Source of the DNA: Candidatus Sumerlaeia bacterium
Lineage (GTDB): Bacteria > Sumerlaeota > Sumerlaeia > SLMS01
Assembly (NCBI GenBank): GCA_038208905.1
Contig: JBBQYG010000059.1
Coordinates: 1-20,232, forward strand
Reading direction: 5' to 3'
DNA length: 20,232 nt
Under the pieces are notes generated by a model, which saw nothing but the letters and a program-made list of their open reading frames with translations, was not told the DNA's origin and ran no database searches. This document shows positions 74 through 20,123 of the stretch, one piece after another (within the stretch, counting starts at the first letter, position 1; the number at the start of each line of letters is the position of its first letter). A program made the position numbers and the translations under genes.

Positions 74-619
74 CCTCCGACCTCTCCCCCAATTCTTGCT
101 GTATATACACCTAGCAAGACCTAGCGGAGCAATACGGCCACGGCGTTTCGGATTCAGGGGCAAAAGGACGCGTTCGACGGCGTCATCGCGGGAACTCCGG
201 CCAACGCGGCGCTGGAGTCCATCGAGGCGATGATCGACTGGGCGGCGGTGCGCGCGGTGCTGGCGCGCGGGTACGACGACTCGGTACGCGGGTGGGTCGG
301 CAGCGACCCGGTGGTGCTCTTCAAGATGCTGCTGCTCGAGCGGATATACAACCTGTCGGACGTGCGCGTGTCGGTGGAGGCGGGCGACCGCCTGTCGTTC
401 CTCCGCTTCCTCGCGCTGCCCGCGGGCGAATCGGCGCCCGACGACACGACGCTGGTAAAGTTCCGCGCGCGCATGATGCCAGGTCAGAGGGCGGCCGCGC
501 GCCGCGAACCCGCGCAGGGCCACCGCCACCGCGCAGGCTCAAACGAGGGCGCGAGGGGGGAAAATGTGGCTCCGGGGCGAAAAAAACGAGGTTGCTTTCA
601 GAACGGAGAGGGGCGGAGG
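74..619. mobile_element. Non-autonomous or deleted IS remnant with candidate terminal inverted repeats
   Basis: CCTCCGACCTCTCC (74-87) compared with the reverse complement of 605-619 (CCTCCGCCCCTCTCC) brackets the transposase fragment. CTTTCAGAACGGAGAG (595-610) also looks like an IS right end. Boundaries are uncertain. Confidence 0.4.
134..476 (+). pseudogene. IS5/IS1182-like transposase N-terminal fragment (DUF772/InsH N-terminal domain); DDE catalytic domain missing
   Basis: The frame of ORF 230..724 reads ...QKDAFDGVI...ALESIEAMIDWAAVRAVL...DPVVLFKMLLLERIYNLSD...DRLSFLRFL.L......PDDTTLVKFRARM, the DUF772 signature (LFKMLLL...YNLSD, F..FL, PD.TTL.KFR). Similarity ends at about 476. The frame is open upstream of ATG 230 with no earlier start codon. 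Confidence 0.85.
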
Positions 620-756
620 GTCAGGCCAGAGGTTCCCTCATGGGTGTCCATGTCCATCTCGTACATGACTCCCTCTCGCAGTGGCAGACGACAAAAATTC
701 TCGCCCGGTGCCTTGCAATTCTAGAGTGACTCTCGAAAGTCCTGTCGTATTCCAAC

Positions 757-9715: not shown

Positions 9716-10843
9716 CTATCGCGCCGACGACATCCCTTGTCTATACAGGGCGTCGGTGCGCGAGACCAGCGCATCCAGGCTGAAATCCATCGCGCGGGAG
9801 CGGCACGCGGGCGCCATCGCGGCCAGCCCGTCCACGCCCAGAGCCAACGCCTCGCGAAGGTGGGCGGCCAGCGTCTCCACATCGCCGGCTCCGTGGACCC
9901 AGCCGACATCCGGGCGGTCCACCGCCTCGCGATTCCCGCCCACGTCGCTCGCGATGGCGGGCTTCCCACAGGCCAAGGCCTCCACCAGCGCGTTGGAAAA
10001 GCCCTCCTTGAAACTCGCCAACGCAATCGCGTCGCTCGCATTGTAGAGTGCCGCCATGTCGTCCCGCGCGCCCAGAAGCCGGATGTCCACACCGGGCATC
10101 GCAGCGACGCGCACGCGGACTTCCTCCTCCAGCTTTCCCGCACCGGCGAAGAGCAACACCGGCGGCGGCCCCGGCCATCCCTCGATGGCCTTTGCATAGG
10201 CCTCCAGCATTCCACGGGGATTCTTCTGGGGATGAAGACGCGCGGGAACCAGGATCGCGACGCTCGCGGGGGCGATCCCCAGCTCGTTCCGCGTGGCGCC
10301 GCGGAGGGCCGCGTTGGGCTGAAAGGCGTCCGTGTCGATCCCGTTGTACAGGAGCGGCACGCGCTCCGCGGGAAGGCCAAGGCGCTTCATGACGTCGGCC
10401 TGCACGGCGCCCGAAACCGCAATGGTGCCCGTACGCCAGCGCGAAACCGCGCGATCCATCATCGCCTGGCGTGGCGTGTCCCAGCTATCTACGTTGTGGA
10501 TCTGGCCGAAGATCGTCTTCACGCCCGCGAGGCGGGCCGCGATGGTGCCGGGAATGTTGGATCGATACATGTGGGAATGAACCACATCGGGCGCGATTTC
10601 GCGCAGCCGCCGCCGCAGCGCGGCGATTCCCGGAGGAGAGAGCCGCGTGCGCAGCGTGATCACCTCCACTGGGATTCCTTTCGCGCGCAGGTCGTTGGCC
10701 AGCGGCCCCTCTTCGCGCAGGCAGATCACCCGCATGTCCCACCCGGCATCCGCAAGGCGGGGCACCACGGCGGAAAGGCGGCGCTCGATCCCACCCACGG
10801 GTAGCCAGGTGATCAGGCGGACGGCGATGGGACGACGCGTCAT
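9716..10843 (-). CDS. Glycosyltransferase family 4
   Basis: GGIER, VVHSH, LYNGID, RLHPQKN, EGFSNALVEA (EX7E) and SDVGGNRE motifs. The ATG overlaps the upstream stop (ATGA). Confidence 0.95.
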   Translation of the reverse strand: MTRRPIAVRLITWLPVGGIERRLSAVVPRLADAGWDMRVICLREEGPLANDLRAKGIPVEVITLRTRLSPPGIAALRRRLREIAPDVVHSHMYRSNIPGTIAARLAGVKTIFGQIHNVDSWDTPRQAMMDRAVSRWRTGTIAVSGAVQADVMKRLGLPAERVPLLYNGIDTDAFQPNAALRGATRNELGIAPASVAILVPARLHPQKNPRGMLEAYAKAIEGWPGPPPVLLFAGAGKLEEEVRVRVAAMPGVDIRLLGARDDMAALYNASDAIALASFKEGFSNALVEALACGKPAIASDVGGNREAVDRPDVGWVHGAGDVETLAAHLREALALGVDGLAAMAPACRSRAMDFSLDALVSRTDALYRQGMSSAR

Positions 10844-11628
10844 TCGGGAGGCTCCGGAATCATCAGCGGATTGAACCAGGGGACGAGGCGGGGAGCGAGC
10901 CCCGATTCGCCACCGTGGATCTCCACCTCGTCCAGCTCGCCGCCTGGGGCTGCGCTTGGCCACTCGATCAAGACCGGCCCGGAAAACTCGGACAAGGCGC
11001 CGAGTCGAGAGGCCATTGGGGCCGGAACATAGCCCGAAGTGGACGTGTATCGCGCCCGGCCCCTGATCGACGGCATCGGCCCCCCTTCGGTGGCGAAGGG
11101 TGGCAGGCTGGGCTCACTGGACAGGATCAGCATTTCGCCAGTGATCCAGAACACCCCAAGCGAACCGGCGGAACGCGGCGCATTGGGAGAATCGAAAAGG
11201 CCGGTCGTCTCGATAACTTCTCTCAGGCGGTGTACGCGAAACCGTTGGGGGCGCTCGATGGGGACATAGGCCAGCCAGCGATCCTCGCCGCTCGCCTCGT
11301 CGTTCCAGAAGAACACCTGCCCCGCGGGTGCGAGCGTCTCCCGGCAGGACTTCGCCGCGGCCCGCGCCTGCCTCTTCAAGGATTCCCCCGAGGAGGCGTG
11401 AGGAGCGAGGAACGCATCCTCCGCCAGCGATAGGGAGAAGCTCAGGGTACCCAGCGTTGGCTCGCGGAGCGCCATCATCATTGGCGGATTCTTCCGCGTT
11501 GCCGCGGCGCCCACCCAGGCAAACATCAGGAGCGCCCCCGCGAGCAATGCGGCGAAAGTCGATCCCCACGCCCACCGAATCCGGCGCAGGCGTTGTTCTT
11601 CGTCCGTGGGCGTCCGACGCTTGAGCAT
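10840..11628 (-). CDS. Hypothetical membrane-anchored protein (one N-terminal TM segment)
   Basis: Basic N-terminus followed by WAWGSTFAALLAGALLMFAWVGAAA; translationally coupled to the GT4 gene. Start placed at ATG 11628, since the longer ORF overlaps the pilin gene. Confidence 0.75.
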   Translation of the reverse strand: MLKRRTPTDEEQRLRRIRWAWGSTFAALLAGALLMFAWVGAAATRKNPPMMMALREPTLGTLSFSLSLAEDAFLAPHASSGESLKRQARAAAKSCRETLAPAGQVFFWNDEASGEDRWLAYVPIERPQRFRVHRLREVIETTGLFDSPNAPRSAGSLGVFWITGEMLILSSEPSLPPFATEGGPMPSIRGRARYTSTSGYVPAPMASRLGALSEFSGPVLIEWPSAAPGGELDEVEIHGGESGLAPRLVPWFNPLMIPEPPE

Positions 11629-11661
11629 AAAAAAGGAGACCGCCCCCGTGCGGAGGCGGTC
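11629..11661 (-). terminator. Intrinsic terminator after the pilin gene
   Basis: Minus-strand hairpin GACCGCCTCCG-CA-CGGGGGCGGTC followed by TCC and T6, 30 nt after the pilin stop. Confidence 0.65.
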
Positions 11662-11690
11662 AAGTGAGACAGGGTCTTGGAACGCGAAGC

Positions 11691-12356
11691 TTACTGCTTC
11701 ACGCGCCACGTGTCGCCGTCGGAGATGGTGCCGTTGGAGGGATCGTAGGTGAACGAGCCGTTGGCGGCGCCGCCAGCGAGGAGGGTGATCGAGGGCTGGG
11801 CAACGCTGCCGTTGTAGGCAGATTCCGTCGTGGGCAGGCCCGCGAAGGTGTTGTTGACCCACTTGCCAGCGCCGCCCTTGGCGCGGGGATTCGCCAGGTT
11901 CCACAGCATCTCGCCGCCGTCACGCTCGTCGACGTTCGGTCCGAAGGATCCAAGGACCCAGCCGCGCTGATCGGTCCAGTAACGGAAACCAATGCCACGC
12001 GTATCCGCGAACGGATCGGGGAAGTTCGACGTCACATAGGCGATCGGCGTCGTGATGGTCAGCAGGCGCGACAGGTTGCGGGCGCGGAACGTAGAGCCAA
12101 CCGTGCCGGGAACCGCGCTGTAAAGGCCAGCGTCCAGCGTAAGGGAACCAGTCACCGTCGAGGCCGGGTACGTATTGTTATCGATGTAGTACGTTTCGAT
12201 GGCCGTTGCGAGTGAACGATGGTCAGACTTGACGCGAGACACCTTGGAGCGCGTCTGCGCCTCCAGGAAGTTGGGAACCGCGATAGCCGCGAGGATCGCG
12301 ATGATCGCAACGACGATCAGCAGTTCGATGAGGGTAAAGCCGCGTAGTTTAGTCAC
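11691..12356 (-). CDS. Type IV pilin-like protein (prepilin N-terminal cleavage/methylation domain)
   Basis: MTKLRG|FTLIELLIVVAIIAILAAIAVPNF class III signal with E5; later DPF, S.GP and YDPSNGT.S.GD motifs. GTG 12356 with AAGGGG Shine-Dalgarno. Confidence 0.95.
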   Translation of the reverse strand: MTKLRGFTLIELLIVVAIIAILAAIAVPNFLEAQTRSKVSRVKSDHRSLATAIETYYIDNNTYPASTVTGSLTLDAGLYSAVPGTVGSTFRARNLSRLLTITTPIAYVTSNFPDPFADTRGIGFRYWTDQRGWVLGSFGPNVDERDGGEMLWNLANPRAKGGAGKWVNNTFAGLPTTESAYNGSVAQPSITLLAGGAANGSFTYDPSNGTISDGDTWRVKQ

Positions 12357-12419
12357 TGCGCTACCCCTTTCAGGTTTGGAATGGGTGCCCGCTACGGGGC
12401 AGCCTTGCACGGTCTGGAC

Positions 12420-12471
12420 ACGCTGGGGACCCCACCTATCATGGGTCAAGCTCAAACGGAGGAAAAAAAAA
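12420..12471 (-). promoter_or_regulatory. Candidate pilin promoter with upstream T9 tract
   Basis: TTGACC (12449-12444)-N18-CAGCGT (12425-12420); T9 run (12471-12463) in an UP-element position. The -10 match is weak. Confidence 0.35.
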
Positions 12472-12478
12472 CGGTTTT

Positions 12479-12682
12479 CTAGACCACCCAACCTTGGACC
12501 ACGGTCAAAACCACCACAATCACTCCCAGCGCGCCCAAAAGTAGTAAAAATTTACCCCATCTTCTGAAAGTTTTCCCTATCAGAGACGGCGCGTAACCAA
12601 AGTCAATCAGTGAAATCACGAATGAGAGAAGTAAGGTTAAGTATATCATCGAGACGAGAAACATCAGGCCCGCGGAATTCAT
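12479..12682 (-). CDS. Small 67-aa two-TM membrane protein
   Basis: MNSAGLMFLVSMIYLTLLLSFVISLI...KTFRRWGKFLLLLGALGVIVVVLTVVQGWVV; GGAGG Shine-Dalgarno; TGATG overlap with the upstream stop. Confidence 0.8.
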   Translation of the reverse strand: MNSAGLMFLVSMIYLTLLLSFVISLIDFGYAPSLIGKTFRRWGKFLLLLGALGVIVVVLTVVQGWVV

Positions 12683-13170
12683 CAGGTCGCGACCTCCGCG
12701 CCGGGAGCCGGTGCCTGCGACAATTGCGGGTTTCCCGCCAGCAAATCCCACAGCCGCACCGTTGCGAAGTAGTTCAGTCCACCCGCCACCACCAGATGGA
12801 AGGCGCCCAAGTCCGCATAGGGCTTGCTGCCAAGCGCCGTCAGGTTGAAGTAGGCGGAGGTATCGCTCGCAGCGGCCCGCTGCAAACCCTGCAACCCCAG
12901 CCATCCTCCGCCGTGGAAGGCCTGGGAAAGGTAGGTAAGTATCCCCACCAGATTGAAGTTTGGTGTGAAGGGCGCCCAGCTAACGGGCGCCAAAATATAG
13001 CCCCCCATCAGAATCCCGATTGCAAAGCACAGGTTGATCAGGATGAACAGGGTGGCGCCGCGCGCCATATCGCGCGACAGGATGTATCCCAGCCCCGGTA
13101 TGAGCCAATTCGCGGTACAGAGCGCGAGGGCCACCGGGGGCGAGCGGCGGAGAAGGGGTTCTTGTGGCAA
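12682..13170 (-). CDS. DUF6677-like membrane protein
   Basis: NWLIPGLGY.L.....RG...F......F.IG..MGG and DLGAFHLVVAGGLNY.....D resemble the WLIPG.GH / G..F..VAGLLN family pattern. TTG start is uncertain. Confidence 0.75.
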   Translation of the reverse strand: MPQEPLLRRSPPVALALCTANWLIPGLGYILSRDMARGATLFILINLCFAIGILMGGYILAPVSWAPFTPNFNLVGILTYLSQAFHGGGWLGLQGLQRAAASDTSAYFNLTALGSKPYADLGAFHLVVAGGLNYFATVRLWDLLAGNPQLSQAPAPGAEVAT

Positions 13171-13271
13171 CGAGATCGGGATTCTTTCGGGCGTTGTATA
13201 AAGCCGCGTCGTGGATAAGACCTGCTATCGGCGCGCGGGTTTGCACGGTCAACGCCAAACCCCTCGCCGCG

Positions 13272-14219
13272 ATGCTCGCCATCGCCGCCACCTCGGCGTC
13301 GGGCGCCACGCTTTCGCCCCCACACCCGATGCCCGGCGGCGCCCGCCGCATGACGTGGGATGGGCCCAGTCAGACGCTTGTTTGCGCGATGGCGCTTCAC
13401 GGGACCACCTTTATTCGGATGGCCGACACCGCCATTGTGGACGAATCGTGGCATCCCCAGTGGACCACCCTGCACGTGATTGCGCTCGGTGGGGGGCGCT
13501 ACCTCCTCGCCGACCGGTCCGGCGTCCTCCGCCTCGTGGAACGCGACGCCGCAACGACCGACTTCGCGGAGGTCGCCGCCTGGCCTTGCGACGGAGTTCC
13601 CACCCACTTGGTCTGGCGCGAGGGTGTCCTCCACGTCGCCGCGGGCGGAGCCGGCGTCCTTGTCTTCGACTGGGACGGCACCTCCACCAAGCCGCGACTC
13701 CGGGCGCGGTTTCCCTTCGTGGACTTTTCCAAGGAGATCGCCTTCCTTGGTCCCTCGACCTTCGCCGTGGCGGACAATCAGGAAACCGGCTATCAATTGA
13801 TTTCCCTCAGCGATATCCAGCGCCCGCGCCTCCTCGCCCGCGAAAGCCACAGCTTCGTCGATGGCGTTTCCACCTATGGAAACCGGATGGCCATCACGGC
13901 CCGGGGGCTGGGAACCTTGGTCTTCGATGTGGGGGAGCCAACGACCCCCCGCCTTGCGGCAACCGTCCCCCTTCGCGGGAACACACCCCTGCCCACTGCT
14001 CGATTCTGCGCCTTTTCCCCCGAGGGCCGACTTCTCGTCTGTCACGATGGCGAAGGAGCCGTCCTCAAGACCCTCGACGAAAACGGCCAGGAGCTGGACC
14101 TTATTGACCGCCTTAGCGTTGTCGTGGAGAACGAATCGTTCCTGAGCGCGGCGTTCCTTCCCGGGGGCGTCATCGCGCTATCCTCCATGACGGGAAACCT
14201 GTACTTTGCCGAGCCCTGA
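13272..14219 (+). CDS. Secreted LVIVD-repeat-like beta-propeller protein
   Basis: Repeats LHVAAGGAGVLVFDWD...KPRL, AVAD..TGYQLISLSDIQRPRLL and AITARGLGTLVFDVGEPTTPRLAATV; Ala-rich signal-like N-terminus. Start uncertain (ORF open from 13164). Confidence 0.8.
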   Translation: MLAIAATSASGATLSPPHPMPGGARRMTWDGPSQTLVCAMALHGTTFIRMADTAIVDESWHPQWTTLHVIALGGGRYLLADRSGVLRLVERDAATTDFAEVAAWPCDGVPTHLVWREGVLHVAAGGAGVLVFDWDGTSTKPRLRARFPFVDFSKEIAFLGPSTFAVADNQETGYQLISLSDIQRPRLLARESHSFVDGVSTYGNRMAITARGLGTLVFDVGEPTTPRLAATVPLRGNTPLPTARFCAFSPEGRLLVCHDGEGAVLKTLDENGQELDLIDRLSVVVENESFLSAAFLPGGVIALSSMTGNLYFAEP

Positions 14220-14302
14220 CCCCGGATTGGCTTCCCGCTTGCGTTTGTTGTGGCCGTGCAACACCGCAGCCCCCCGCGGTTGATTCGAGAGACGACGAAA
14301 CA

Positions 14303-17134
14303 GTGCACCTGACCCCACGATGGTTCCAACATCTCCACTTCACGCTGGCGGCGCTTCTGGGCTTCGCGATGGCGACGTCCGCGCCCGCTCAAACCACCGG
14401 GAGGGGCGCCTCCATCGGCGGCGACTTGACCGTGTATGCGGCGGAGCGCGCCTATAGCTGGCGGAACTACAACGTTGCCTGGGAGTTGGCCCTCGGCGCA
14501 ATCCAGGGGGACCCGCCGGGCCTCCCCGCGATCCGCGTCTTCGTCGATATTGCCAGCGATCTCCACCGGCAGTCGGAAGTCCTGCGCCGCTTCGACCCCG
14601 AAACCGCCGCCACCCCCGAAGAGAAGGCCCTCGCTCACTACGCGCGGTCCTATCTGGCGCTCCAGACTGGCGACCTCGTGCGGTCACGCGAAGAAATAGG
14701 GCGCGCAATGGGGCAGGTAGGCAGAAATCTACCCTTCGAGATTCGACGACTGGACCTCGTCATCAGCCGGGAGGAAGGCAAGAAGTCTGGAAACGAGATT
14801 TTTCGCGAGTACGAGCAACTTGTCGCCGAGAACAACGATAACGGCCTGGCCCACCTCTCCTATATCAACACCTTCCACTTCTACCAGAACGAATCCCGGC
14901 GCCATAAACGGGCTGTGGCCGCCGCCATGGCCGCGCCGGAGCGCACGCCCCAGACCTACTTGCGGCAGATCAACTTGGAGGAGAACAGCTTCTGGTTTGA
15001 TCCCGCCCGCGCCTTGGAGATCGCAAACCAAGGCCTGGCCGAGTTTCCCGATGCCCCCGAGCTGGCTCTCGGCAAGGTAACCTATCTGCGACGCCTCGGG
15101 CGCACCGGGGAGGCGTTGGACCTCGCTCGCGAATGGGTCGCCAAGGCACCAAATCACGGCGGCTTCCGCACCCCGCTGGTGGACGTGCTGGAAGACCTTG
15201 GTCGCTATGAGGAAGCAATCGCCGAGTCCCTGCGGACCGCCGACCTGACCCACCAACCGGAGATCATCGAGGCGCAGCGCTTCAAGCGGGCCCGGCTGTT
15301 CCACTACTCCGGCAAGCGGCCGGAGGCCATCGAGGCGCTGACCGATTTCGTCAGGGTCAACCCCACGGGAAACTTCTCGCGCGCCGCGCGCATGCTGCTC
15401 TTCTCGCTCCAGACCAGCCAGCCCACCGATGTTGTCCGCGTCATCGCGGACGGAGGCTACGTTCAGCAGCGCGGCAACTATTGCGGGCCCGCCACCCTCA
15501 GCATGGTCCTCGGCCACTGGGGCGTCCGGCGCGGGCAGGAGGACGTCGCCGCGTCCGTCTATACGGGCATCGCCGGGACGCCGCCCCAGGTCATCCATCA
15601 CTACATCGCCTCCGTTGGCCTCGAAAGCGTCGAGTTCAAGGGAACGGACGAGAGCTGGAAGCGCCTGATCGACGCGGGGATTCCCGTCCTCTGGCTTCAG
15701 ATGAATGGATCCCAGGGCGGGCACTACCGTGTGGTTCTGGGTTACGACGACGTGCTCAAGAACTGGATCGTGAGCGACCCCAACTTCTACGCGCGCACGG
15801 AGATGAGCTACGAACTTGTGGACGACACCTGGATCCTGCCCAGTCTGCGCCGCTCCATTGCCATCGTCCCCAAGTCGCGCATCGACGACCCGGCGCTGGC
15901 GGACCTCGCGCCGACGCCGATCCTGTTTATCACCAACTGGGTGCTCTACGTCGCCACGGGCGCCAACCTCTTCGTCGGGCTGTTCCCCGCGCTGCTGGTT
16001 AATCTGCTGGTGGCGCTTGTCCTTGCGTGGGCTGTTGCCGGCTTGCTCAGGCGAATCACGTATCCCAACGTGGCTCTCTCGCAAATCCGGCTGATGGCAT
16101 GCCTGATGGTGCCGATCGCGGCGCTGAATCTGGTGGTTGGAATCTTCCGCCTCAGTCAGGGCGTCAGCGTCCTGCTCGCGCTGCACCTTGCCCTCGTCAC
16201 GCTGATTCCGCTGCTGGCGCTGCTTCTGGTGTTCCGGCGGCTGATCCACGACATCCTGCACCCGCGCGAGTCCCTTGGCCTTGTCGGCCTCGTGATCGTC
16301 GTGTGGCTGTGCCTCGCCTTCATCGATCAGGATCCGTGGCAGTGGGTGGTGCCGGTTTGCCTCCTCGTGGCGGCACTTCCGGCGATGCTCTGGCCCCGGC
16401 TGGCGATCAAGCGGGCGGAAAGCGCCCTGCGCAACGGAGAGCTGAACCGCGCGCTTGAACTGGCTCGTCGCCACGGCCACGAGGGCGCGCGCTACTTCGC
16501 CGCCATCGCCATCGAGATCGACGGCCACCTCTCCGCAGGTTCCTTCGACCGCGTCGTGACCATCGCGCGCAAGCTGCTGGCTGAGAACGCGGGTCTCGGG
16601 CGACCCCAGCGACTCGCCATTCGCCTCTACCAAATCGGGGCCGAAGCGCTTCGCTTCGCCGACGAGGACATCCACGCGGAGATTGTCGAATACCTCAAGG
16701 AGCGCGCCATGCCCCGCGGCCTGCGCACCGTCGCCGATGGGCTCCTCCTCTACGTCGATGGCGAGGTTGCCGCCCGCGGCGGCAGCGTCGCGCGCATACC
16801 AAACAACACCGAAGTTGATACGCTTCTTGCGGCGCTCTCGCTACTGGGCCGCAAGGCGCTTCCCGGATTTCCCGTCACCCGGACGCTGCGCGGGAGGTCC
16901 CTGCAATCCTGTGCCTTCCTCCTCGCCCTCACGGGGGCGTTGCGGCTGGCCGATGCCGCGGAGAACCCCGAGCGGCGACAGCATCTCTGGATGACGTGGT
17001 CTGGGCGATACGGCCTGATGCTGCGGCTCGTGCGCGGGTTCGAGGTCAACGCGCGGCCCTCGCGCGCCGTCGTGCGCAAGCCAGCGCCGAACCGCAGCCC
17101 CTCGGAGGAGAGGCGCGGCTCGGGAGTAGGCTGA
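14303..17134 (+). CDS. Membrane protein: signal peptide + TPR-like repeats + C39-like cysteine peptidase + 5-6 TM helices + helical C-terminal domain
   Basis: Signal ...LAALLGFAMATSAPA|Q. TPR-like units (ALEIANQGLAEFPD, LRRLGRTGEALDL, LEDLGRYEEAI). Peptidase motifs QQRGNYCGPATLSMVL, IDAGIPVL, GHYRVVLGYD and VSDP, giving Q388/C394/H474/D492. Hydrophobic block at about 15920-16395. Confidence 0.88.
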   Translation: MHLTPRWFQHLHFTLAALLGFAMATSAPAQTTGRGASIGGDLTVYAAERAYSWRNYNVAWELALGAIQGDPPGLPAIRVFVDIASDLHRQSEVLRRFDPETAATPEEKALAHYARSYLALQTGDLVRSREEIGRAMGQVGRNLPFEIRRLDLVISREEGKKSGNEIFREYEQLVAENNDNGLAHLSYINTFHFYQNESRRHKRAVAAAMAAPERTPQTYLRQINLEENSFWFDPARALEIANQGLAEFPDAPELALGKVTYLRRLGRTGEALDLAREWVAKAPNHGGFRTPLVDVLEDLGRYEEAIAESLRTADLTHQPEIIEAQRFKRARLFHYSGKRPEAIEALTDFVRVNPTGNFSRAARMLLFSLQTSQPTDVVRVIADGGYVQQRGNYCGPATLSMVLGHWGVRRGQEDVAASVYTGIAGTPPQVIHHYIASVGLESVEFKGTDESWKRLIDAGIPVLWLQMNGSQGGHYRVVLGYDDVLKNWIVSDPNFYARTEMSYELVDDTWILPSLRRSIAIVPKSRIDDPALADLAPTPILFITNWVLYVATGANLFVGLFPALLVNLLVALVLAWAVAGLLRRITYPNVALSQIRLMACLMVPIAALNLVVGIFRLSQGVSVLLALHLALVTLIPLLALLLVFRRLIHDILHPRESLGLVGLVIVVWLCLAFIDQDPWQWVVPVCLLVAALPAMLWPRLAIKRAESALRNGELNRALELARRHGHEGARYFAAIAIEIDGHLSAGSFDRVVTIARKLLAENAGLGRPQRLAIRLYQIGAEALRFADEDIHAEIVEYLKERAMPRGLRTVADGLLLYVDGEVAARGGSVARIPNNTEVDTLLAALSLLGRKALPGFPVTRTLRGRSLQSCAFLLALTGALRLADAAENPERRQHLWMTWSGRYGLMLRLVRGFEVNARPSRAVVRKPAPNRSPSEERRGSGVG

Positions 17135-17138
17135 GCCG

Positions 17139-18428
17139 CTAATACAGGCTGACGCCGCTGGCCGTCGCCGACGCCGGTGTCTCCAGGAACCCCAGCGGGC
17201 CCGGATAGACGAACCCGGGGAAATAGTTGGCCAGCGCCGCCGATCCGACGCCAAGTCGCTTGGTGAATATCTCGCCAAGCACCGTGCGGAAGTCCGTCGT
17301 GACTGCCAAGTCCTTCCTCTCGAAAAGGCTGTCGTTCGCCAAGCCCGGCCACGCGCCCCATACCTGCTTTGCGGCGATGTTCCGATTGAGCACCATCATC
17401 GCGCCGCCGTGGCCGTGGTCGGTGCCGCGGTTGTCGTTCTCCTTCAGGCGACGCCCGAATTCGCTCATCACGACCACCGTCAGGCGGCCGTGGTGGCTGG
17501 CCATGTCGTTCCAGAAGGAGTGCAGCCCGCCCGCCAGTTCCTCCACAAGGCGCGCAAAGGCTCCCGCCGCGGAGTTTCCATCCGCTTGGGACTCGTGGGT
17601 GTCCCACCCGCCCATGTCCACCGTGGCGGCCTGAAGGCCCAGGTCCATCTTCACAAGCTGGGCGATGTTGGCCAGCGCCCGGGAGAAGTCGTTGTCGCCA
17701 TACACCACCCCCGGCGTCGGCGCATAGGCGCCCACCGGATTCGCGTCCAGCAGGTCCGCCGTATCGAGCGTCTTGATCGCCACGGGCCCAAGGCTGGCAT
17801 CGAAGTTGTACATCAGGCGGAGCGCGCGACGGATATCGCCGGCGTGGGAGCCTGAGCCGCGGAGCGTGAACTCCCCCGGGTCGTTCATCGCCAGCGCGCC
17901 GGGGAATCCCGAGAGCGCCAGCGAGGCGGAGGCGCCAAACGTCAGCCCGCGGAACACGCCGCCATAGGAATCCTGGCTGGGGGCGCCGTTCAGGTAACGG
18001 CCGATCCATCCACCCGCGTCGCGATCCTTCCCGCCATTGTCCATGTAGTCCTGGGCCTGAAAATGGGAACGGCTGCCATCCGCGTCGGGAAGCCCCGTGG
18101 CTGGGATGAGCGCCAGATGCTGCTCGTCATACAACTCCTTGAGCGGCGCGGCGGATGGATGAAGCGCGAAGTATCCGTCCAGCATCGTCCCCGCCGCCGC
18201 GGAACCCTGAATGCGCAGGCGGGGACGGGCGTCGTGGTAGAGCGAGTCGGCGACGGGTATGAGGAAATTGAGCGCGTCCATTCCCCCGCGAAGGAAGACG
18301 TTGATGACAACATCCCGCGATGCGGCGGGCGCGCCCTGCGCAAAGACAAGGTCACCCAGGCGCGAGCCGTTCATGGCGACAATGCCTGCGCAGCAGCCCT
18401 GCAGGAACGTGCGGCGGTGGAGCTTCAT
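17139..18428 (-). CDS. DUF1501 family protein with Tat signal
   Basis: MKLHRRTFLQG twin-arginine signal; FLRGGMDALN, LHP, RSHFQAQD, GGWDTH, SEFGRR..EN...GTDHGHG and DL..TTDFR motifs. Confidence 0.95.
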   Translation of the reverse strand: MKLHRRTFLQGCCAGIVAMNGSRLGDLVFAQGAPAASRDVVINVFLRGGMDALNFLIPVADSLYHDARPRLRIQGSAAAGTMLDGYFALHPSAAPLKELYDEQHLALIPATGLPDADGSRSHFQAQDYMDNGGKDRDAGGWIGRYLNGAPSQDSYGGVFRGLTFGASASLALSGFPGALAMNDPGEFTLRGSGSHAGDIRRALRLMYNFDASLGPVAIKTLDTADLLDANPVGAYAPTPGVVYGDNDFSRALANIAQLVKMDLGLQAATVDMGGWDTHESQADGNSAAGAFARLVEELAGGLHSFWNDMASHHGRLTVVVMSEFGRRLKENDNRGTDHGHGGAMMVLNRNIAAKQVWGAWPGLANDSLFERKDLAVTTDFRTVLGEIFTKRLGVGSAALANYFPGFVYPGPLGFLETPASATASGVSLY

Positions 18429-18506
18429 GTTGAGGGGGGGACCTGTGATCGGGGTATCGTCCGATGCAACCACCATCGCCGCGCGGGCCCCGGTTGGCAA
18501 CGGAAA

Positions 18507-18564: not shown

Positions 18565-20079
18565 CTAGCGGAGAGTCTCCAATACCGACGCGATCTCGCC
18601 AACGGTTCGCGTGCCGGCGCGCTGATCCTGCTTGCCACCCATCGAGTCAAAGAAAATCCAGGATGGCACCCGGAAGACGCCGCTCTGTTGCGCGACCTGA
18701 GGATACTTGCTCACGTCGATTTCCGCGAACACGGCTCGCTGGGTAAGGGCCGCGAACGCGGGATCGGAAAAAGTCCGGGCCTGCGCCACGCAGTCCGCGG
18801 CGGCGGGGCTGTGGAAGTACATGACCATGGGCCGCCGGTTCGCCGCGCTCTGGGCCCGCGCCGCTTCCAGTTGGAGGAACCCGGGAAGGCTTCCGGGGGT
18901 GGAGACCCTGGCGGGCGTCGTCGTGATCGTGTTGGAGGCGATGGAAGTCGATCCTCCCGCCGAGCCCACGTTTCCCGTGCCGCCAAAGTTGGCCCACTCG
19001 GCCTCGGCGGCCTGAAGGGCGGCGGGGGAGAGGCGCAGGATGAATACCTCGGGCGCCGGCGCATCCGTGCGCAGGATCTTCCCGCCAGAGATGTAGATCG
19101 CCGCGCGGCGATAGTCGGTCGCGGCAGCCTGGTACAGCTTGTTGGGAAGGTTCGTTGCCTGCTTCTGCCACTGGCGCATGCCCTGCGGCGAGACGCTGGT
19201 CCAATAGATGTCAGTGCTCATCCCGCCTGCCTTGTAGCGAGGCGAGATCGAGAAGAGGTACGGCCCCGCAACGGCTGACGTGGCCGAGTAGAATGCCTCC
19301 GGCAAATCGGCGGGCTCCGCGCGCCATTCCCCGATGCGCCCGTTGGAAAGCACCGGAGCGGAATACACCTTGGCGGTGGGATTGACGGGGGTTGTTTCGT
19401 CGTTCAATCCCCCCCACGCATAGGCCCGCCCGCCGACCACGGCGGCGCAGTGAAACCACAACGGCGCGGGAAGTGGCGACGACTCCGCCCAATCACCGAT
19501 GGAGCCGTCCGGCAGCACCGGCGCCGACCAGACACGGCTGGAGACTTCGGTCCTCGATAGCCCCCCCGTGATGTGTACATAGCCCGCCGTCGTCAGCGCC
19601 GCCACACAGGACAGCCCTGCCTCCGAAAAGGGCTTGGACTCGCGCCACGGCGCCAGATTGCCGTCGGGGAGCGGGCTGGACCACGTCACGGTATTGACGC
19701 GGTCGCCATTGAGCGAAAGCGTCGAGCCGCCCAGCACATAGGCAGTGTCGTTGAGGACGAGGGTGCTGTTGTTGATGTAGTGCCGCGCCACGGCGAGCGG
19801 CGTTGCCCGGCGCCATGCAAGCGGACGGCCATCGGGGGCCAGGGCGCTGGCGTCCACGCTTTGCGAGGGAACCTGTTTCCCCTGCTCGTTGATCGAGCCG
19901 CCCAGCATATACAGATTGTTGCCCAACACCGCCGACCCGTGGAAGGCCCGCCCCGCCGGCAGCGGGGTAGTGGGGCTCAGGAAGTCGCCCTGCGCCATGA
20001 TGCCCGTGTTGGACACGGCTCCAATCGCGAGGCATGTCGCAAGTGTGCGCCGAATCTTGCGTGCCAAAAAATTCATCAT
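18565..20079 (-). CDS. Secreted Kelch-repeat beta-propeller fused to a C-terminal thioredoxin-like domain
   Basis: About six repeats of the form Y..GG...V.SAP..PDG....W.....LP; G/S/T-rich linker; then AARAQSAANRRPMVMYFHSPAAADC...FAEIDV...GVFRVPSWIFFD..G. ATG 20079 with AAGGA Shine-Dalgarno. Confidence 0.88.
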   Translation of the reverse strand: MMNFLARKIRRTLATCLAIGAVSNTGIMAQGDFLSPTTPLPAGRAFHGSAVLGNNLYMLGGSINEQGKQVPSQSVDASALAPDGRPLAWRRATPLAVARHYINNSTLVLNDTAYVLGGSTLSLNGDRVNTVTWSSPLPDGNLAPWRESKPFSEAGLSCVAALTTAGYVHITGGLSRTEVSSRVWSAPVLPDGSIGDWAESSPLPAPLWFHCAAVVGGRAYAWGGLNDETTPVNPTAKVYSAPVLSNGRIGEWRAEPADLPEAFYSATSAVAGPYLFSISPRYKAGGMSTDIYWTSVSPQGMRQWQKQATNLPNKLYQAAATDYRRAAIYISGGKILRTDAPAPEVFILRLSPAALQAAEAEWANFGGTGNVGSAGGSTSIASNTITTTPARVSTPGSLPGFLQLEAARAQSAANRRPMVMYFHSPAAADCVAQARTFSDPAFAALTQRAVFAEIDVSKYPQVAQQSGVFRVPSWIFFDSMGGKQDQRAGTRTVGEIASVLETLR

Positions 20080-20123
20080 TTTGCCTTCCTTCTCCCCGTG
20101 GAATTCGTTCGTCAAGCGAGGTC

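Follow-up and report, generated by a model that had tools for sequence, protein, structure and literature searches.

A Sumerlaeota family of predicted periplasm-facing C39-like peptidases with a conserved membrane module

C39-like peptidases that are exported have been catalogued before, as have the tetratricopeptide repeat (TPR) proteins that partner periplasmic proteases and the pair formed by PA2778 and PA2779. The protein analyzed here, encoded at positions 14303..17134 of the plus strand of contig JBBQYG010000059.1 from a Candidatus Sumerlaeia bacterium (assembly GCA_038208905.1; the complete stretch of 20,232 nucleotides is referred to below as the window), is new in that a catalytic module and a TPR theme, both known, are joined in one chain to a previously undescribed membrane module and to a repeat domain of predicted cytoplasmic location, all in one uncultured phylum. 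An earlier inspection of the window that used only its letters (hereinafter, the sequence-only reading) described a Sec signal, about 330 amino acids (aa) of TPR-like helices, a C39-like domain, a membrane block and a helical tail, and both Pfam and AlphaFold2 (AF2) agree with this order. The evidence tips, by a little more than an even chance in our estimate, towards a membrane-seated, periplasm-facing C39-like processing peptidase in which the TPRs would pick the substrate, the membrane module would be a working unit with the peptidase, and the tail would dock a partner.

Peptidases of the Peptidase_C39_2 family (PF13529) have the same Gln/Cys/His/Asp set as this protein, which scores above the family cut-off and appears to be extracytoplasmic like its nearest relatives outside the architecture. 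These peptidases are described as single-domain in a 2023 classification (PMC10318531), unlike the domain in the window protein, which is preceded by a 330-aa TPR array and followed by a polytopic membrane module and a TPR-like domain of predicted cytoplasmic location. The PA2778 family (NF033920), with its PA2779 partner (NF033919), is likewise a case of a periplasmic C39-like peptidase associated with TPR; however, in the window protein, the peptidase and the TPRs are fused and embedded in the membrane, and the score of 36.7 bits against the NF033920 profile (positions 7-135 of 255; curated cut-off, 150) shows that the protein is not a member. The search for the PA2779 family gave no match in the genome and none in any of the 14 control genomes either, and hence is uninformative. 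The peptidase domains of the ComA-type exporters (3k8u/5xe8) belong to the same fold family and are directly followed by a helical membrane block. In the peptidase-containing ATP-binding cassette (ABC) exporters (PCAT/AMS), the peptidase is cytoplasmic and N-terminal, lacks a signal, and is followed by the ABC membrane domain and the ATPase, whereas here the N-terminus is signal-like (in 28 of the 32 aligned family members), the peptidase starts only at residue 376, after the TPR array, and would be located on the opposite face of the membrane. The sequence-only reading saw no Walker motif, and indeed, neither a Walker A nor an LSGG motif is present in the protein, and the Pfam scan yields no ABC family at E ≤ 1.

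Several other systems are comparable in concept or in theme. LapD-LapG of Pseudomonas fluorescens is a case of inside-out control of a periplasmic cysteine protease, LapD carrying HAMP, GGDEF and EAL domains. The likeness is in concept only and lies in the combination of a papain-superfamily protease of the periplasm with a membrane protein that has a domain in the cytoplasm; unlike LapD-LapG, the protein in the window is a single polypeptide, with no C93, HAMP, GGDEF or EAL domain in the Pfam scan at E ≤ 1 and no adhesin or type 1 secretion context. With NlpI-Prc, LbcA/PA4667-CtpA and BepA, the window protein would share the theme of substrate selection by TPRs on behalf of a protease in the periplasm. 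When the family profile is searched against the PDB, PA4667 is the best natural bacterial TPR match (E 9e-20), the TPR similarity being generic. The proteases in these systems are serine or metallo enzymes, soluble or lipoprotein-tethered, and to our knowledge, none of the systems includes a membrane module with several spans or a domain in the cytoplasm. TgpA of Pseudomonas aeruginosa is a polytopic membrane protein that displays a transglutaminase-like cysteine-protease domain in the periplasm and thus resembles the predicted arrangement of the window protein, with a papain-superfamily domain exposed to the periplasm on a multi-pass membrane protein. TgpA differs, in a comparison by Pfam, in the catalytic family and in the order of the parts, and the window protein has no Transglut_core match.

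The sequence-only reading knew of no described family with this architecture, and this impression holds up: Pfam and NCBIfam leave residues 525-700 uncovered and yield only a weak, sub-threshold ANAPC3 match in the tail, and full-text literature searches on C39/TPR, on PF13529/C39-like and on Sumerlaeota peptidases retrieved no description of such a protein. The Sumerlaeota genome paper (PMC8092238), in a term search, mentions neither this protein nor the envelope.

Domain architecture, catalytic residues and distribution of the family

The open reading frame (ORF) at 14303..17134 encodes a 943-aa protein and starts with GTG, the earliest possible start in the frame. The GC content at the three codon positions (0.69, 0.45 and 0.83, respectively) is typical of the genes in this 65% GC genome; this is a genuine gene, present in a single copy in the 4.2-Mb, 94%-complete assembly. 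A word-indexed search of 5.8 billion proteins identified 19 full-length relatives with 32-49% identity, so that the domain architecture is far beyond chance; the named ones among these are ‘C39 family peptidase' of Candidatus Sumerlaeota. DNA nearly identical to positions 12400-17400 of the window is also found in metagenome runs labelled freshwater, microbial mat and sediment, with at least half of the sampled words present in 5 runs from 5 studies, and one of these runs could be the sample from which the genome came; none of the 21 runs listed is an RNA run.

The first 29 residues (14303..14389; this and the other features of the protein are all on the plus strand) look like a Sec-type signal peptide by hydropathy and sequence, with one basic residue, a hydrophobic core at 13-24 and APA before Q30; AF2 models this region as a helix (6-24) followed by a low-confidence linker (23-40). 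A hydrophobic N-terminal segment preceded by basic residues is present in 28 of the 32 family members, and the remaining four, which start at or after the first conserved motif, probably have mis-called starts. Just past the predicted signal peptide, 18 of the 32 members have a Gly-Gly pair ahead of a conserved S-P-E-E-R stretch, a candidate self-processing site; the window protein diverges from its relatives in this region (residues 30-50).

The signal is followed by a solenoid of about 20 helices (aa 38-371; 14414..15415), the predicted periplasmic TPR array, which is identified by Pfam, AF2, Foldseek and the PDB profile search. The Pfam models TPR_16, TPR_14, TPR_19 and TPR_2 match at 233-366, with TPR_14 at 27.3 bits (cut-off, 23.5) and the other TPR models below their cut-offs. 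The predicted local distance difference test score (pLDDT) is mostly above 90 across these helices, and the matches of the Foldseek and PDB profile searches are TPR proteins, the full-length Foldseek query returning nothing else. The AF2 model of the full-length protein was built from 19 sequences (pLDDT 85.9, predicted template modelling score (pTM) 0.73), and that of residues 525-943, the membrane block with the tail, from 32 sequences (pLDDT 89.7, pTM 0.83).

The C39-like, papain-fold cysteine peptidase domain (aa 376-523; 15428..15871) is recognized by Pfam, AF2 and conservation, with Q389, C394, H474 and D492 as the catalytic residues. Peptidase_C39_2 matches at 386-494 with 52.3 bits (cut-off 24; Pfam E 1e-13), Peptidase_C39 (PF03412) scores 34.7 bits (cut-off 22), and the full-length AF2 model contains an alpha/beta domain at 378-523. 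In an alignment of 32 sequences from one phylum, on which all conservation counts given here are based, Q389, C394 and H474 are each invariant, whereas position 492 is occupied by Asp in 21 sequences and by Asn in 11; all nine distant relatives tested score 57-71 bits for PF13529. Thus, of the catalytic set proposed from the sequence alone, C394, H474 and, with the Asp/Asn alternation, D492 are retained, but the glutamine was misplaced by one residue: Q388 is a variable neighbour, Gln in only 10 of the 32 sequences, of the invariant Q389. A weak alignment (E 0.18) with the peptidase domain of ComA (5xe8/3k8u) pairs the motif that contains C394, H474 and D492 with equivalent Cys, His and Asp residues. 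The C39 domain is the most conserved part of the protein, with a mean column identity of 0.65, followed by the membrane block (0.54), the N-terminal TPRs (0.44) and the tail (0.37).

The peptidase gene was found in 10 of the 75 Sumerlaeota genomes: 7 of the 10 other genomes of its own family, the only genome of a second family and one of the four genomes of a third family. A scan of one genome per prokaryotic species detected full-length matches in eight loci, six of which bear the label Sumerlaeota or Sumerlaeia and two just ‘bacterium'; the remaining kept matches cover the peptidase domain alone. Thus, the full-length architecture appears to be confined to Sumerlaeota among the genome collections searched, with two copies labelled only ‘bacterium'. 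Shorter forms are limited to a 233-aa piece and one TPR+C39_2 protein of 421 aa with 33% identity, in a word-based search of limited reach. The 233-aa piece (P0040), on a 680-kb contig, is 56% identical to the peptidase part, stops shortly after the start of the first membrane element and is possibly a truncated copy. The orthologue in another genome (G053; C15:68465-71083) contains one in-frame TAG, which could reflect either a defective gene or a mistake in the assembly. There are three further Peptidase_C39_2 matches in the genome that carries the window (C61:16816-17211, C110:8735-9223 and C10:21614-21805), in open frames of 410, 589 and 242 aa, respectively.

The 14 nearest outside C39 relatives that were examined are proteins of 188-507 aa, with a single N-terminal hydrophobic segment in 13 of them and a second hydrophobic peak in one, and look like exported stand-alone C39-like peptidases. 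The periplasmic location of a C39-like domain, which the sequence-only reading considered to be unusual, is therefore not out of the ordinary for the C39-like branch (PF13529).

The membrane module, its topology and the tail

The peptidase domain ends 15 residues ahead of the membrane, with about 15 conserved residues as the linker. The hydrophobic block that follows spans residues 539-699. It comprises a short, conserved first element (aa 539-557; 15917..15973; N545, Y549, T552, G553 and N555), delineated by AF2 and conservation, and, from hydropathy and AF2, five transmembrane (TM) helices (aa 563-585, 594-615, 618-648, 654-673 and 679-699; 15989..16399), with N567, N609, D650, E656, D675 and R699 as the conserved polar residues. 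AF2 places six helices of the membrane region between 539 and 710; the last of these is a continuous helix (679-710) that runs from the final TM helix (hereinafter, TM6) into the tail. The first element is modelled as a 14-residue helix and a 4-residue helix (539-552/554-557), with a break at G553 and a pLDDT of 67-80, lower than in the rest.

The genome encodes Omp85 and LpxC, and therefore a periplasm exists in this organism. The mean numbers of Lys and Arg residues per loop across the 32 sequences are 2.4 in loop 2-3, 1.8 in loop 4-5 and 4.4 after TM6, whereas loop 5-6 has, on average, 0.4 Lys/Arg and 2.2 Asp/Glu. By the positive-inside rule, these counts put the tail in the cytoplasm and the side preceding helix 563-585 in the periplasm. 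Since the N-terminus would be exported, the element 539-557 could not span the membrane under this topology and is more readily viewed as re-entrant or interfacial. With an exported N-terminus, a helix of only 14 residues, the break at G553 and the lower model confidence, five spanning helices and one half-helix are a consistent reading. Taken together, the signal peptide and the charge counts suggest that the TPRs and the peptidase are periplasmic, the tail is cytoplasmic, and the membrane is crossed by five helices supplemented with a short half-helix. The sequence-only reading had anticipated five or six TM helices, a protease facing the periplasm and a cytoplasmic tail, all compatible with this topology, but had also called the protein ‘trans-envelope', which is an overstatement because it would span the inner membrane only. 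Overall, the architecture of the protein matches no characterized family, its catalytic residues are conserved among homologues, and the predicted topology does not place the peptidase in the cytoplasm.

The membrane block is highly conserved: N555, N567 and P588 are present in all 32 sequences, N545 and D650 in 31, E656 and R699 in 30, and D675 in 29. Such column identity and residue invariance suggest that this module is more than a plain anchor. Under the inferred topology, N545, N555, N567, N609 and D675 would all lie near the periplasmic leaflet, just beneath the peptidase.

A phmmer search with residues 525-943 as the query against 1.84 billion representative proteins (E ≤ 0.001) yielded only 26 matches. 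In 23 of these, the protein has 860-1031 aa and aligns at the same relative position, beginning at about 495-550; the remainder comprises two short sequences, of 379 and 233 aa, and a weak match within a protein of 1440 aa. All nine distant members that were tested also contain the TPRs and Peptidase_C39_2. Among these matches, the membrane module is thus not seen in any other architecture. No Pfam or NCBIfam family covers residues 525-700, and a Foldseek search with the membrane block and the tail gave no match at E ≤ 0.001. In the structure search with the same two parts (VIA-align), the match list was filled by the tail, and no transporter match was seen for the block with Foldseek. In the protein atlas, the best score for residues 525-943 is 0.76, to TPR clusters, and nothing was retrieved for 530-712. 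Accordingly, by sequence comparison, the membrane module appears to be undescribed and family-specific; novelty of the fold is not claimed, since the block was searched only together with the tail.

The tail (aa 700-916; 16400..17050) is a predicted cytoplasmic, TPR-like helical domain, delineated by AF2 and VIA-align and continuous with TM6 via helix 679-710. It is all-helical, with a pLDDT of approximately 90-97, and in VIA-align, the segment at about 694-924 (168-400 in the model) matches many TPR proteins with Z of 9-11, which is inside the chance range given for helical repeats; no solved structure stands out. The only Pfam match in the tail is the TPR-type ANAPC3, at 705-734, weak and below the cut-off. 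Arginine accounts for 13.5% of the tail compared with 9.3% of the whole protein, so that the description of the tail as Arg-rich and TPR-like is borne out, within the limits of the Z range just given. The sole low-confidence loop of the domain (aa 853-866; positions 16859-16900 of the window) has a distinct motif, namely, a hydrophobic residue, Pro, Gly, a hydrophobic residue and Pro followed by an Arg-rich stretch, with G855 present in 26 and P854 in 20 of the 32 sequences. The chain ends with a disordered segment that, together with the stop codon, occupies 17051..17134 (aa 917-943); the pLDDT is below 50 for residues 909-943, and the segment is not alignable among the relatives.

Gene neighbourhood

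Immediately upstream of the peptidase gene, at a distance of 83 bases, is a gene for an exported protein of an unclassified family (13164..14219, plus strand; start uncertain). This protein has no Pfam or NCBIfam match, and its orthologues bear N-terminal hydrophobic segments. An impression by eye that it might be a ‘LVIVD-type' beta-propeller is unsupported, with no Pfam match at E ≤ 1. A prediction of a complex between the periplasmic part of the peptidase protein (41-525) and the upstream protein (55-351) scored 0.01 against a mark of 0.32, and says nothing either way.

A divergent gene row (9716..13170, minus strand), which is conserved in the related loci that reach far enough, lies beyond the upstream gene. 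Starting from the side of the peptidase gene, it consists of genes for a DUF6677 membrane protein (12682-13170; Pfam E 7.5e-12), a small membrane ORF (about 12479-12700), a type IV pilin-like protein (11691-12350; N_methyl, with a GspG/PilA-type N-terminus), an unclassified membrane-anchored protein (10840-11904; start uncertain) and a glycosyltransferase of the GT4 families (9716-10963), all on the minus strand. An ORF of 202 aa on the plus strand (12610-13218) was rejected as a shadow frame of the 162-aa DUF6677 gene. The pilin-like family is greatly expanded, with at least 34 matches at E ≤ 1e-20 in the genome, among 40 candidates scored, and with matches in all 75 genomes of the phylum.

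In the close subfamily, the gene of the exported protein always directly precedes the peptidase gene, as seen in nine loci, six of which reach far enough and show the full divergent row. The same gene is, however, carried by 37 of the 75 Sumerlaeota genomes, some of them from families that have no peptidase gene. In G051 and G036, the peptidase gene is missing and unrelated genes occupy the corresponding place, and the neighbours of two distant family members are different ones. Because the neighbours occur without the peptidase gene and the distant members differ, this arrangement is best regarded as lineage synteny rather than a dependable functional link. Two downstream genes on the minus strand, encoding a DUF1501 protein (17139-18500) and a protein with Kelch repeats and a thioredoxin-like domain (18565-20115), do not accompany the peptidase gene in the related loci. 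An ORF on the plus strand close to the left end of the window (230-724) contains a transposase DUF772 domain (Pfam E 1.5e-11).

Possible mechanisms and significance

If the protein is a processing peptidase seated in the inner membrane, as we are slightly inclined to believe, it would act right at the outer surface of that membrane, cutting exported or membrane-anchored proteins of the envelope at specific sites or, possibly, carrying out acyl transfers on them. The periplasmic TPR array would bind and present the substrate, and the membrane module would form one working unit with the peptidase, either positioning it or holding the membrane-embedded part of the substrate, with a contribution of the conserved Asn and Asp residues near the periplasmic leaflet; the TPR-like domain in the cytoplasm would dock a cytoplasmic partner, for localization or control. 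Several considerations weigh against this interpretation. The topology is derived from hydropathy, charge counts and the lengths of the helices; the alignment is shallow, with 32 sequences from one phylum, so that invariance is less telling than it would be in a deep family; the conserved Asn residues in the membrane may serve helix packing only; and the gene neighbourhood offers no functional lead that would hold across the family. Furthermore, C39-like domains are not always peptidases. For a C39-like variant with the Q-C-H-N set, weak glycosidase activity and no Gly-Gly peptidase activity are reported (PMC13642728), and given that 11 of the 32 members of the present family carry Asn at the third position, an activity other than peptide cleavage may, by analogy, be considered.

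Alternatively, the membrane module could be a new device coupling a cytoplasmic TPR receptor to a periplasmic peptidase in an inside-out switch or, otherwise, a polar pocket that recognizes anchors or lipid-linked groups and defines a new sortase-like class, but either of these would be a long shot. In the former scheme, which is an analogue of LapD/LapG in one chain, a cytoplasmic ligand or protein bound to the tail would open or close the periplasmic peptidase, the signal being relayed through TM6 and the polar core. The helix 679-710, unbroken from the membrane into the tail, the strong conservation of the membrane module with its polar residues, and the fact that the module is never found apart from the peptidase are all compatible with such a switch. 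Nevertheless, the Pfam scan detects no PAS or nucleotide-binding domain in addition to the missing HAMP, GGDEF and EAL domains, there is no Walker A motif and no match to the LapG family (C93), and no adhesin or type 1 secretion genes are located beside the gene. Moreover, the tail is the least conserved part of the protein, whereas a ligand-sensing site is usually conserved. The gating by the tail that the sequence-only reading proposed finds no signalling domain to draw on, and we consider it improbable. To about the same low degree, the protein could be an enzyme that cleaves anchors or transpeptidates in the manner of a sortase, with the module binding a TM anchor and the peptidase releasing or transferring ectodomains, similarly to exosortase/rhombosortase or to what has been proposed for the PA2778/PA2779 pair. 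The proximity of the peptidase to the membrane, at about 15 residues, and the location of N545, N555, N567, N609 and D675 near the periplasmic leaflet under the inferred topology fit this scheme. In contrast, a crude genome scan, in which 111 of the 3389 coding-like ORFs had a C-terminal hydrophobic segment, showed no motif that recurred on visual inspection, a gene for a small tail-anchored protein is not retained next to the peptidase gene throughout the family, and the score against the PA2778 model is far below the cut-off (36.7 against 150 bits). No recurrent C-terminal sorting signal that would fit the surface-protein transpeptidase envisaged in the sequence-only reading emerged from this crude scan.

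Somewhat less probable still is an enzyme acting on the cell wall or on lipid-linked substrates, that is, an amidase, endopeptidase or transpeptidase that would attack stem peptides or a precursor held by the module, with the TPRs scaffolding the cell-wall machinery. The papain fold is common among cell-wall hydrolases, and TPR adaptors are known for periplasmic proteases that act on such hydrolases; the best bacterial TPR match in the PDB, PA4667, is presumably one of these adaptors. However, the TPR similarity is generic, the Pfam scan finds no LysM, SPOR or PG_binding domain, and there are no cell-wall synthesis genes nearby. Peptidase_C39_2 is included among the catalytic domains of phage endolysins in two surveys, but these listings are annotations, not assays. 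Two further schemes seem very improbable to us. The order of a C39 domain and a helical membrane block recalls the peptidase-containing ABC exporters, and the structural matches of the tail include peptide-binding TPR domains like those of PlcR, Rap and NprR, at Z of 9.4-9.7, values that helical repeats can reach by chance, so that one could envisage an inverted, ATPase-free relative of these exporters, in which the tail captures a precursor peptide, an oligomer of the module passes it across the membrane, and the C39 domain removes the leader. Such an export unit would have no apparent energy source, with neither an ABC membrane domain nor an ATPase domain present, no transporter matches the small membrane block (about 160 aa) in structure, and no gene for a precursor peptide is conserved nearby. 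The TPR arrays on both faces of the membrane could also point to a non-catalytic scaffold that tethers complexes on the two sides, with the C39-like domain only binding a partner, but the retention of Gln, Cys and His in all 32 sequences and of Asp or Asn at the fourth position, in the most conserved region of the protein, speaks against this scheme.

The membrane-seated processing peptidase thus is the interpretation that we retain, and its practical value is limited until the substrate is found. Exported C39-like peptidases are widespread, and almost none of them has a known substrate. The present family is a compact test case for the placement of periplasmic proteolysis at the membrane or for its coupling to the cytoplasm, and, for Sumerlaeota, of which no member has been cultured, it provides a defined envelope protein that is specific to the lineage.

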